From: Podarcis gaigeae
Lineage: Eukaryota
DNA: 64,000 nt
NCBI GenBank assembly: GCA_964106915.2
Contig: OZ066916.1
Reading direction: 5' to 3' (one strand)
Position 1 is the first letter of the stretch; each line of letters begins with the position of its first letter. Positions 47,347 to 64,000 of the stretch are shown here, in pieces. A program made the position numbers and the translations under genes. The notes beneath the pieces were generated by a model. It did no database searches. It had not been told where the DNA came from and worked only from the letters and a program-made list of their open reading frames with translations.

Positions 47347-48565
47347 CTGTTGCATGCATCTCTCTGAAGCCATTTATCATTTGCTGTTTAGGAGGGCATC
47401 TTTCACTTTTCATTTTTACCTATGGTACAAAAATAATATGCTGGCTTTGTAACATCCCCCTGCTGCATGCTGTAATATATCTATTGACTTGGCTTAAGGG
47501 GCAGCTGAAACTAATGAATTTGCACCAACTGGCAGCTAAGGAGAAAAGTGTAATAGATGGTCCCCATAAATTCTGCATATGCATATAGTGATTCATAGAA
47601 TTTGTCTTTCCATGGGAACTGATTCCTTTTGTTCTCAACATTTACCTATGTCAAGCTTTCACAACTGGATGACTAGGTATTTGTTTTGTATTGTTTTTAA
47701 ACTCTTCTGTCTCTTCTGCAACTATTTTAAACTGCTTTTATTATATTTGGTACATTGTCTTGGGACATACATGTAAGGCAAGTAATAAATACTACTAATA
47801 ATACATATAAACCTACAGCTGTCAGGCATAAGAACTGTGGTAACATCAGCCACCAAACCCAGTCCCATACTCTGAAGTAGCTTCCTTTTGTATTCTTCAA
47901 ATGGATTAGGCCACACAATCCAAACAAACAGGAGAACAAGGAAAGAAGAAGCATATGAATGTCACCCGGAGACTGATAGGAATGGGATTTTACATCCTAC
48001 AAAACTATGTGTGCAAATTAGAGTTTATTATGCCAAAATAAATTTCAACAAGCCTGGAAACTATTGGTTGCTCATCTTTAGGGATAAATTGCTCAAAAAC
48101 ATAGTGAGCCTGAAACATTCTATTGTGATACTCTTTTCAGAGAGACACTCTTATCTCTAAGGCATCAAAATACAAAGGAATCTATAAATCAAGGTTTTGC
48201 CAGTGACTTGAATAGAATGTAGATTGCTCTCATAAAGTGGTTATTTATGTAGTCTGGCAATGTAATGTGTCTGAAGTTCTCATACAAAAAAAGTATATGA
48301 AAGCTAAGTATAATGACTGCAGCTGTGTGGCTTTTTGGGGTTTTTCAGGGGGGTTTTAATAACATGCCTCCAGATTCTCCAACTCAGTAGTTTACTCTGG
48401 CCCAGCATATTTCTTTGTGGAAAAATTAAGAAGTAGCTCTCTTATTCCCCCCCCCCCTAAATGTGTTTCATGACATCCTATGTAAAATTGACATCATGGC
48501 TAAGCTGTAAATTATTCCAGTTTATTTAGAATATCCTCATAGCAATCCAACTAAGTTAGTTCTTG

Positions 48566-48603
48566 GTATGAGCTTTCGTGTGCATGCACACTTCTTCAGA
48601 TAC
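48566..48603 (-). ncRNA. Minimal type I hammerhead ribozyme motif (antisense copy, intact G-C base of stem II)
   Basis: Reverse complement reads GUAUCUGAAGAAGUGUGCAUGCACACGAAAGCUCAUAC. Confidence 0.72.
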
Positions 48604-48609
48604 AGATGT

Positions 48610-48647
48610 GTATCTGAAGAAGTGTGCATGCACATGAAAGCTCATAC
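48610..48647 (+). ncRNA. Minimal type I hammerhead ribozyme motif (sense to ADGRB3)
   Basis: GUAU [stem I] CUGAAGA [core] a-GUGUG-caug-CACAU [stem II] GAAA-GC-UC [palindromic AGCU stem III, cleavage 3' of C48643] AUAC [stem I']. Confidence 0.7.
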
Positions 48648-48832
48648 CAAGAACTAACTTAGTTGGTCTTTAAGGTGCTACTGGAAGGAATTTTTTTTGT
48701 TTTGACTATGGCAGACCAACACGGCTACCTATCTGTAACTCATAGCAATCTCTCAAGTTCATTTGGTGATGAGTCTGGGACTATTTAGTAAAGTAGGTTC
48801 TAATATTTATCACACTGTTTTAACTTTCACAG

Positions 48833-49027
48833 ATTAAAGAACATCTTGCAAAAGGACAGAGGACACTGGCAGGTGAAGGAATGTCCCAGGTGACAAAGAC
48901 CCTTCTGGATTTAACTCAGAGGAAGAATTTTTATGCTGGGGATCTCTTGGTTTCTGTGGAAATTCTCAGAAATGTTACAGATACATTTAAAAGAGCAAGC
49001 TACATTCCAGCTTCTGATGGAGTCCAG
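48833..49027 (+). CDS. ADGRB3: ADGRB3 GAIN-region exon (195 nt, phase 0-0); absent from the ORF track
   Basis: aactttcacAG|ATT AAA GAA CAT ... GGA GTC CAG|GTaag; [65 protein letters not shown]. Confidence 0.97.
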
Positions 49028-50943
49028 GTAAGTGAAACTAGTAGTAGAGCATAGCTAAGTAGCCATAGCTAAGTAAGTAGAATGTTCTTGGCATCTCCAG
49101 TTAAAATGATCTCTAGTGAGGAGAGCAGCTGCCTGAGATCTTAGAGAGCTGCTTTCACTGAGAGGACCAAATGCTGAACTAGATCACTCTTCTCCAATAT
49201 GGTGCCTTCCATCTGTTGTGGACTACAACTCCCATCTGCCCCAGATAGCATGACCAATGCAGGGAAGGAGAGTAGGAGAGCTCAGCTTTGGCAGTAACGT
49301 GAAATCTGTTTCTGCATTCCACATTCTGTTTTTACATTCACTGTGTAGTGAATGGCCACTAGGATTAAAGGCACGACAGTTTCCATTATTGCTGACATGT
49401 AATATTTGATAAGAAATTGATGCTCTGTAACTGGCATACCGGCCTTCAATACAGACTCAATTGGTTGCAAAGCCAGCACAATTAATTGTTTTGTCACACT
49501 GAGCTATGAGATAGCTGGAAGTGCACCACCTCCTGAACATATGTGCTGATTCAGAAAGTCTTTGTATCAGGCATTTAGGCTGCAGCAAAAGCAAACATAA
49601 CAATGGCAACATCGTTAATTTGACACCGTTTATCCTAGGTACTTCAATCTGATAAAGCCACATCCTAATTAGTGTTAAAAGAGAAGACAACAAAGGCTGC
49701 TTTAACTCAACTCTACAGCCAGACCCAGACAGAGAGGATAGTAGTTTTGCTCATCCTTAAAATAAAATTAAAAAACCCACTGTGGGCAGCATGAGAAGAA
49801 TTTAAGATAAGCCCCAAAGCTTCTCTTTTCCAACATTCTGTTTCCTGCAGTGGCCAACGAGATGCCAGTGGGAAGCTCACAAACAGGCACATGAAGGCAA
49901 TAGCCTCACACTGCTCTTCCCTGGTGACTGGTATCCAGAGGCGTGCTGCCTCTGATCTTGCCGGTGGCGCAAAGCCATCCTGAATAGTAGCCACTGAGAG
50001 CTAGCTAATCACAAGAGACATAATCTTTCTTAAGCACACCTCCTGTATCAAAACCTAAAGCAGAATGTTAAGTAGTAAGAATGGCCATGAACGCTAGTGT
50101 CTGGTGGTCCCAGGATATAACCTAAAGGCACATGAGACCACCAACTTGCTGAAATTAAGCAGGTTTGAATCTAGTCAATGTGTGCATGGGTGATTGCTTG
50201 GGAACCATATGTACACCGCCTTGGGTCTCATGATGGAAGAAAGGAAGGATATTAATTTAAGGGAATAAATAAATAAAATGACCATCCATTAAGCTACTCA
50301 GAATACATCATGCAACTGTCTGCTAGGACAATAAATTATTTTAATTAGATGATAGCAGTGTGACTTTAATTGAAGTCTATGAGGGGAAAGAACTTCATGC
50401 TAGCTAATAACTTTGAATATATGGACTGCATTTTTCTGGGTTTCCTGTACTCGGCTTCCTGTACCAAACTTTTCCTTTTAAAAAAAAAACACCACAGAAA
50501 TTTGCATGTCAATCCTGCACAGAATGGACATTATATTGGCTATTTTCTGTAGTTTAAGATTTCATCTTGAACTACTGTCATTAAGAGTTTAGGGCTTTTT
50601 AAGTAAGCAAGAAAGTACCTCCCCCAATACCTCCTGGATGCAAACTTTCTTTCTACAATGGCAAATAAATGACACTGCCGGGGCTAATACAGATGTGCTG
50701 GTTTGTTTAAGCATGGCTGGATGCAGGATTGCATGTTCTTTACCCACAACTCCTCAAACCCTACCTGAAGACAACTGATATCTTGATGCTGACCTTCTTG
50801 ATAAACCCAGGATCTGAAACCATACAAATATGAACACATTTGCAGTGTTGTTTCTGCAGCATCCTACTGTATCCCAAAGTCAAATGTTGAGCATGCATTT
50901 AACACTGGCCCACACTTGTGGTTTGTTTTTGTTTTTCTGACAA

Positions 50944-62146: not shown

Positions 62147-63320
62147 GTAAATTTGTATAGATTTACCAGTCATTTGCTGTTGGAAACTTTCCCCCTTACC
62201 TGACCTAGAGAGAATGACATTACTTGTGTGCATTATTTAAGTGGTTATTTATCATTGGATTAAAACAGGCAAATTATTTAGAACCGAATGCTTGTCCGAA
62301 CAAATAGGTTTTCAATACCCACACACACTTGGAAAAGGAAGGTGCTTGTTGGACCACATTAGAGAGAGCATTCCAAGCTTTTGGTGCACCTACCTTTCTT
62401 ACAGGTGATGAGACAGAGAGCATGGCATCTCTATCAAACTCATGGTTTGAACAGAGAGAAAGTAGTTCTTCAGCATTAAAGGTTAATGCCATGACTTTAA
62501 ATTGAACTTGGCAATAAATAGATAACCAATATACATGACCTAAGTTCCCATTGTCTGTTTTGGCAGGAGATTCTGGACTTACGAAAGAAAGACCTTCAGA
62601 TAGCACATAGTTAATCTTAGGAACTTTGTTTCTGCAGGACGGGTGGTGAACACTATCTTAGATGGGGATTAGACAAATTCATGGAGGTTAAGGTGATCAA
62701 TAGCTATTATTCATAATGTATATATTTCAGGCATTATAGGTTCAGAGGCAGCATGCCTTTGAATTTCAGCTGTTGGGAAACAACAGTGGGAGAGGGATGC
62801 TGTGCCCTTGACACTTCTTAGTGGGCTTCCAATAGGCAACTGATGGGCCACTGTGGGAAGCAGGATGTTAAGACTAAGTGGGCATTTCTTCTGATCCAGC
62901 AAGGCTGCTCCTATGTAGTCATGCAGTCTGTGAAAATACATTTGCCAAGAGCATCCCTGTTTTACCCCAGCGTTGATAAAAATATGTTCAAATATAATTC
63001 CAAAGAATCCGACTCCTCCTCACATTTTAAAAGCTATAGCAGCCATTCATACAAGTATGTGTACATGGTGCATGCACATGCAGACAACCTTCACAACTGC
63101 ATAAACTGCATGCATTTGAAATAGATATTCTTATTTTATCAAGCTTTGTACGGCTGCTGTTTTATTAATGCTGTTTTTGAAGCTGTTTCTTAATGTCATG
63201 GTAATGTATGTATATTTTAACTTTTTATTCTACTTTTGCTGCAAGTTGCCCTGGATGCCCTTAACAGGTAGAAGGAAAAGGCATAAGCTTTCAGTAAATA
63301 AATAAATCCCTGCCAAAAAG

Positions 63321-64000
63321 TTAGGACATTTGGCTCCTAAGGTTAGGAAAGTGGAAATCTGCCCAAAGACCTGCTCCGATCATAACGCGTTGAAAATGGA
63401 CATGACACTATTACCAACCGGCTCCTTTAGATGGAAGATGAATGACAACTTGTTTAGAGATCAGGAGATTATTAAGAAGGCCAAAAAAACAATAAAGGAC
63501 TACTTTGAGATAAATTTGAACACTGCAGTGGAAAAAAGAACAATCTGGGACGCAAGCAAAGCTGTGATGAGAGGGTTCTTGATACAACAGAACGCCATAA
63601 AGAAAAGACTACAAAATGAGAAAAAGGATAAGATTTTGGGGAAAATTAAAGAGTTAGAGAAGAAACTAAGAGCAAATCCGAAGTCACAGCCGATCTTGAG
63701 AGAAATTAAACTTCATCAGGCACAATATTCCAAACTGATAAATCAGGAAATAGAATGGAAGATTAAATTAATGAAACAAAAAACATTTGAATCGGCTAAC
63801 AAATGTGGGAAACTGCTGGCTTGGCAGTTGAAGAAGAGACAAAAGTTGAACATAGTAACAAATTTGGAAACAGAAGGAAGATATATTCAGAACCCGGTGG
63901 AAATTAGAAAATGTTTCCAGAAATATTTTAAGAAATTATACACTCAAGGGCCACAAAATGAGGAAGAGATTGCAAAATTTTTGGAGAAAAGTGGACTTAA
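63321..64000 (+). mobile_element. 5'-truncated L1-clade LINE, ORF2 (end of APE endonuclease plus linker), frame open to the window end
   Basis: Stop-free translation ...VEICPKTCSDHNALK...FRWKMNDNLF...IWDASKAVMRG...NKCGKLLAWQLK...FQKYFKKLY...; SDH, WDAxKAVxRG and GKLLA are L1 ORF2 motifs; A-rich sense strand. Confidence 0.92.

Follow-up and report, generated by a model that had tools for sequence, protein, structure and literature searches.

A recent hairpin insertion with minimal hammerhead motifs, likely a truncated Penelope-like element end, in an intron of lizard ADGRB3

EN+ Penelope-like elements (PLEs) insert as units that join a 5'-truncated copy to a head-to-head inverted copy, as described in the available text of Craig 2021 (PMC8557442) and Arkhipova 2013 (PMC3846280); self-priming has been proposed for such palindromic junctions (PMC3846280). 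Single minimal hammerhead motifs showed no cleavage in vitro and dimers cut weakly in the account of Cervera and de la Pena 2014 (PMC4209133), which also notes paired minimal hammerheads on opposite strands. The hammerhead of an anole PLE requires protein, and the available text of Frangieh 2024 reports no cut-site ends in RNA-seq (PMC11167929). Penelope RNA is described as heavily edited in lizard brain (Porath 2017, PMC5625713), and editing of Penelope is also described in X. tropicalis (PMC10636886).

Here we describe a 203-bp insertion in an intron of ADGRB3, found in a 64-kb stretch of Podarcis gaigeae DNA (hereafter the window). We consider it very probable that this is a recent insertion, likely a truncated PLE end, whose hairpin is likely a by-product of insertion, whose hammerhead is, by prediction, inactive, and whose near-neutral duplex would likely be edited by ADAR.

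Layout and age of the ADGRB3 insertion

The insertion ends 83 nt before a coding exon of ADGRB3 (BAI3; 48834-49028, + strand), 64 aa of which match human BAI3/ADGRB3 (E 2e-34). Further + strand ADGRB3 exons were recognised by motif near 20.0, 27.8, 35.1 and 62.1 kb, the nearest upstream exon found being the one near 35.1 kb. The host branch-point-like motifs (48800 and 48820), pyrimidine tract and acceptor (together 48800-48833, + strand) all lie further downstream and were left intact by the insertion.

By sequence comparison, the insertion is bounded by 12-bp direct repeats at 48536-48547 and 48739-48750 that are 100% identical. From left to right it consists of an inverted, 5'-truncated copy of an element end (48547-48604, - strand, forming the antisense arm on the gene strand), a 4-nt apex (48605-48608), a sense hairpin arm that is likewise a 5'-truncated element end (48609-48666, + strand) and a 72-nt 3' extension present on one side only (48667-48738, + strand), which reaches the common 3' end of the repeat family at 48738-48740. 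The two arms are 58 nt each and differ at a single position, G48578 versus T48635, which gives a G.U pair in the + RNA; the inverted repeat with a 4-nt loop and one wobble in the sense RNA was thus located just as the original prediction had placed it. That prediction is corrected in a small detail, in that the duplication overlaps the element at both ends: the last base of the left copy is common with the inverted arm (1 nt), and the first 2 nt of the right copy also fit the natural 3' end of the family. Within the apex, 48608 corresponds to the natural upstream base of the family and the other three bases are likely untemplated, a reading drawn from contigs of public runs with loose ends at 48604 and 48608.

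The hairpin is far more stable than chance (folding z = -17.2; 0 of 200 shuffles equal it). Exact 12-mer repeats with the spacing of these two begin at 16 of the 63,700 start positions of the window, and the repeat alone is therefore weak evidence of a target duplication. Contigs of four public runs (DNA runs X1, X13 and X14; RNA run X23) were compared with 48300-49050 at 85% likeness. In run X13, from organism F, one unbroken contig passes from 48303-48535 directly to 48739-49050, with the 203 bp absent and the repeat present in single copy. In run X1, from organism A, contigs join the element to both flanks; in run X14, a second sample of organism A, the right junction is present as a flank-to-element contig, and the left flank has no contig coverage. 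The empty site in X13 proves that the 12-bp repeat is a target duplication, as originally claimed, and its occurrence in a related species shows that the ADGRB3 insertion is young.

Other inverted repeat pairs were observed in the gene region, at 760-994/25580-25979, at 9850-10001/10132-10283 (152 nt, 130 nt apart, 70%) and at 7644-8003/55959-56318 (360 nt at 97%); these are possible further sources of duplex in ADGRB3 pre-mRNA. At 63306-63998 the + strand has an open frame (about 230 aa) that resembles part of a LINE ORF2.

Hammerhead motifs and their predicted lock

Each strand of the hairpin carries a minimal type I hammerhead. On the + (gene) strand it occupies 48610-48647, with stem I at 48610-13/48644-47, the core at 48614-20 followed by an extra A at 48621, stem II at 48622-26/48631-35 with a G.U pair at its base, and GAAA at 48636-39. 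This motif is without stem III. Its predicted cut, after C48643, lies 190 nt upstream of the acceptor AG, whose last base is 48833, so that the motif anatomy bears out the earlier placement of a potential cleavage site there. The - strand motif occupies 48566-48603, with a predicted cut after 48570. In agreement with the published consensus (PMC4209133), both arms contain the CUGANGA and GAAA cores, an additional base ahead of stem II, a UH cut site and a palindromic 15.2-16.2. The arm mismatch sits on the 10.1-11.1 pair, which is G.U in the + ribozyme and canonical G10.1-C11.1 in the - ribozyme; a G.U pair at this place is seen in several natural motifs in Fig. S3 of PMC4209133. T48635 makes up about 11-18% of summed depth, and G>A at the partner base 13-19% (a crude estimate), which looks like ordinary CpG decay.

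The hammerhead core pattern has 2 matches in 64 kb, one per strand, versus 0.04 expected, which agrees with the core predicted on each strand. A looser descriptor, requiring 3-bp stems I and II, returned the identical two matches; the scan of both strands suggested with the original prediction thus recovers both motifs and no third in 64 kb. Rfam gave no hammerhead match on 701 or 101 bases, with sub-threshold hairpin matches only. A microRNA precursor was rejected, all 32 of 32 Rfam matches being generic hairpins below the gathering score. We also observed that the stem II region (48622-48635; 48578-48591) is a 14-nt palindrome. Two free monomers, when co-folded, are predicted to pair through this self-complementary stem II (about -29 to -32 kcal/mol) and not through an active stem III.

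In the predicted fold of a free monomer, stems I and II both form. Within the hairpin, forcing the hammerhead stems would cost 64.7 kcal/mol on the + strand and 58.5 kcal/mol on the - strand, and the duplex appears in predicted folds of transcript prefixes from 48612 on, before the core is complete. Folding prediction therefore supports the earlier claim that the upstream arm sequesters the sense ribozyme. As a prediction the lock holds, but it explains little. The antisense-first order, found on both strands, follows from the head-to-head geometry of any such inversion. A cis dimer of the two hammerheads was rejected, as they lie on opposite strands and cannot meet in one transcript. A transcript of either strand thus holds one hammerhead, without stem III and with no partner within the window, and the motif in the ADGRB3 copy is predicted to be idle rather than purposely switched off. 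For the same reasons the proposal that a locus-level off-switch explains why the insertion is tolerated is not supported.

A broader form of that proposal is that the sense hammerhead could cut ADGRB3 pre-mRNA with a distant partner or a helper protein, that the inverted arm allows the copy to persist, and that introns select hairpin forms. The strength and co-transcriptional onset of the predicted lock speak for it, as do the stems I and II predicted for a free monomer, the protein-assisted cutting by the anole PLE hammerhead (PMC11167929) and the under-representation of hammerhead retrozymes in Xenopus introns (bioRxiv 2026.07.22.740005). However, 42-44% of the retrozyme copies in that source are still intronic, and stem III and a partner in 64 kb are both lacking at this locus. 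Single motifs are described as inactive in vitro (PMC4209133), and cut-site ends are likewise missing from anole RNA-seq in the available text of PMC11167929. The end mapping suggested earlier has a counterpart in the family RNA of run X23, where no pile-up of RNA ends occurs at any place among 1,408 family reads, ordinary RNA-seq being weak for detecting ribozyme ends. The lock is also symmetric on both strands, the inversion is family-wide, and among the best 15 of 184 joints of the family, all 15 of them inverted, none retains both hammerhead cores (0 of 15). We therefore regard this broader proposal as very improbable, and favor a hammerhead that is idle.

The repeat family and its RNA

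The insertion belongs to a large dispersed repeat family. Matching contigs numbered 11,460, 18,471 and 9,034 in the three DNA runs, nearly all of them on the element. Summed depth ratios of 14,000-197,000 were rejected as copy numbers, summed depth being unsuited as a copy count. Loose ends cluster behind 48739-48740 in all four runs, marking a common 3' end, and no preferred end at 48666 was seen among the 24 of 773 loose-end rows listed. Other family copies run on upstream of 48609, so the ADGRB3 copy is 5'-truncated. The window contains no further copy of the element. Pattern scans of viral and prokaryotic genomes gave 0 copies of the repeat, and a scan of metagenomes gave 85 loci at the level of chance, the best aligning over only 24-30 nt and none with an upstream hammerhead.

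Several other features of the family were observed. Its natural upstream sequence has a pyrimidine run and CAG just before 48609, so that stem I begins at what resembles a splice acceptor; D. virilis Penelope reportedly has an acceptor-like sequence at the same place. In each DNA run, about 50 contigs break at 48603 (the mirror of 48610) into unrelated flanks. The 48603/48610 breaks hint at a preferred 5' boundary, part of which could be caused by the end of the reference sequence. In the DNA of organism A, A>G at 48656 is frequent, accounting for 32% of summed depth in X1 and for 20% in X14, whereas organism F almost lacks it; the change likely marks a subfamily expanded in organism A only.

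Among the best 15 of 184 joints, all 15 connect an antisense arm to a sense copy, with differing breakpoints and with joint sides only 20-28 letters long. Two of these 15 recur in all three DNA runs, and 12 share 1-4 letters at the junction. Head-to-head inversion is plainly a habit of the family and not peculiar to the ADGRB3 locus. The earlier supposition of a new arrangement is thus not supported, since inverted copies occur family-wide and are published for PLEs (PMC8557442, PMC3846280).

These junctions suggest how the hairpin may have arisen. A PLE endonuclease would make a staggered cut of about 12 nt at the target, and reverse transcription, primed at the right nick, would run through the 3' end of the element as far as about 48608. 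The resulting cDNA would then fold back on itself, be copied for 58 nt and join the left end. Such cDNA fold-back is somewhat favored, because both arms begin at one base and because 12 of the 15 listed junctions (of 184) share 1-4 letters. Priming from both nicked strands followed by end joining is a less probable but serious alternative. The element's two 3' ends both point toward the duplicated target and have 1 and 2 nt in common with it. Once in pre-mRNA, the duplex would zip during synthesis, and a lone motif without stem III would probably stay uncut anyway.

The element shows a terminal minimal hammerhead, 5' truncation with a common 3' end, head-to-head inversion, a target-site duplication and dispersed copies. 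Its layout of inverted truncated copy, one-sided extension, target duplication and minimal hammerhead is the published PLE signature. We have high confidence that it behaves as a PLE end and consider membership in the EN+ PLEs likely, the identification being one by anatomy. The Penelope-type minimal hammerheads of the original prediction stand. The alternative that the repeat is a non-autonomous element (retrozyme monomer, SINE-like or MITE-like) mobilized by some other enzyme would account for a very large family dominated by short pieces with no coding part seen, and for the many contigs that break at 48603/48610 into unrelated flanks. Against this, the head-to-tail hammerhead tandem of a non-LTR retrozyme is absent both at the locus and within the window, and the hammerhead is minimal rather than canonical. 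A MITE was rejected as well, in that the inverted repeat spans the first 120 nt only and the final 72 nt have no counterpart at the left end, so that terminal inverted repeats are not found at both ends. The family's constant 3' end, its varying 5' ends and its head-to-head inversions fit PLE insertion, and a non-PLE origin is most improbable.

Family RNA was analyzed in run X23, from organism F, of which about 12 in 100 was read (1,408 reads). Organism F is without the ADGRB3 copy, so all of these reads come from other copies, and none lies on the ADGRB3 exon. A>G and T>C together account for 21 of 35 differing places in the RNA, versus 5 of 27 in DNA of equal species label. Among 40 differing places listed of 49, 14 with RNA reads absent, very few or none differing were dropped and 26 were kept, of which 10 were RNA-only differences (<1% in DNA, >=5% in RNA). 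Every one of these 10 is of the kind expected of editing, A>G in one mate direction or T>C in the opposite one, and their 5' neighbor is U or A and never G. ADAR prefers such 5' neighbors and disfavors G. The editing-type pattern has p of about 0.001 if sites are taken as independent, which they are not. The strand-coupled A>G/T>C changes extend across 48568-48673, reaching 36% of reads at 48661.

The RNA differences of the family fit the pattern of ADAR A-to-I editing on both strands. DNA and RNA come from different individuals, and part of the pattern could stem from a few copies with high expression; a strand-skewed G>A at 48699, which is not editing, indicates that single copies carry weight. 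From the RNA of these other copies, the ADGRB3 copy itself would likely be edited by ADAR, and the family hairpins more likely act as ADAR substrates than as ribozyme switches.

An effect on the gene was also considered, in which the hairpin, by itself or by binding ADAR, would alter how the exon 83 nt further on is spliced. The near-perfect 58-bp duplex lies about 135 nt before the branch-point-like motifs, the insertion is found in two samples of organism A, and the family RNA carries the editing pattern, in keeping with the heavy editing of Penelope in lizard brain (PMC5625713). However, the branch motifs, pyrimidine tract and acceptor are outside the insertion, a close relative is without it, and the X23 reads include no RNA of this locus. 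An effect on splicing is accordingly highly improbable, and the reading of a near-neutral duplex is preferred.

Comparison with known systems

The element class, the motif, the inversion and the editing have each been published already. A search of the open literature yielded no paper that connects built-in inverted arms with editing or with tolerance in introns, and subscription papers or Repbase/Dfam may describe the family. The single ADGRB3 copy is of little weight, being a clean textbook Penelope-type insertion with a proven empty site. The family-level result is more useful: the A-to-I pattern on both strands, together with the built-in inversions, offers a testable cause of the heavy Penelope editing described for lizard brain. 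The route by which PLEs insert is likewise recorded in the inverted junctions.

A further suggestion, which we regard as unlikely though worth stating, is that the hairpin stubs of Penelope play in lizards the part of inverted Alus, acting by thousands as self-contained ADAR substrates made in one step, with introns favoring hairpin forms. If true, this would explain the heavy editing of Penelope in lizard brain, and the arm that disarms the hammerhead would cause hairpin forms to be favored over arm-less sense copies in introns. Young presence/absence cases such as the ADGRB3 copy make this last idea testable.

Among the described systems, the EN+ PLE insertion units (PMC8557442, PMC3846280) share with the ADGRB3 copy the 5'-truncated copy with its adjoining head-to-head inverted copy, and also the one-sided 3' extension, the target duplication and the terminal-repeat hammerhead. 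The ADGRB3 copy differs in that it holds only the terminal 130 nt without a coding part, its extension is 72 nt versus the 30-40 nt described for PLE tails, both of its arms begin at one base, and its target duplication is 12 bp versus 8-10 bp in the rotifer examples of the available text.

The minimal hammerhead of Chrysemys picta (PMC4209133, Fig. S3), compared by eye, has the same layout, with the extra base before stem II, a 4-bp stem I, a 5-bp stem II and a loopless G-C at 15.2/16.2. The ADGRB3 motif differs from it by paired substitutions in stems I and II, a self-complementary stem II region, and a C at the cut where the turtle has U. The available part of that paper does not mark the turtle motif as linked to a PLE gene. 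The opposite-strand motif pairs described there are separated by about 100-700 bp, and the ADGRB3 cores by only 14 nt.

Poseidon_Ac of the green anole is, by description, a similar lizard PLE with a terminal-repeat hammerhead; its enzyme nicks and extends both strands, and its RNA-seq shows no cut-site ends in the available text (PMC11167929). The hyper-edited lizard Penelope and the palindromic frog Harbinger (PMC5625713) are likewise repeats whose RNA is edited by ADAR. The available text of that study does not link Penelope editing in lizards to built-in inverted arms. As a self-contained hairpin that needs no neighbor, the ADGRB3 copy resembles the frog Harbinger described there.
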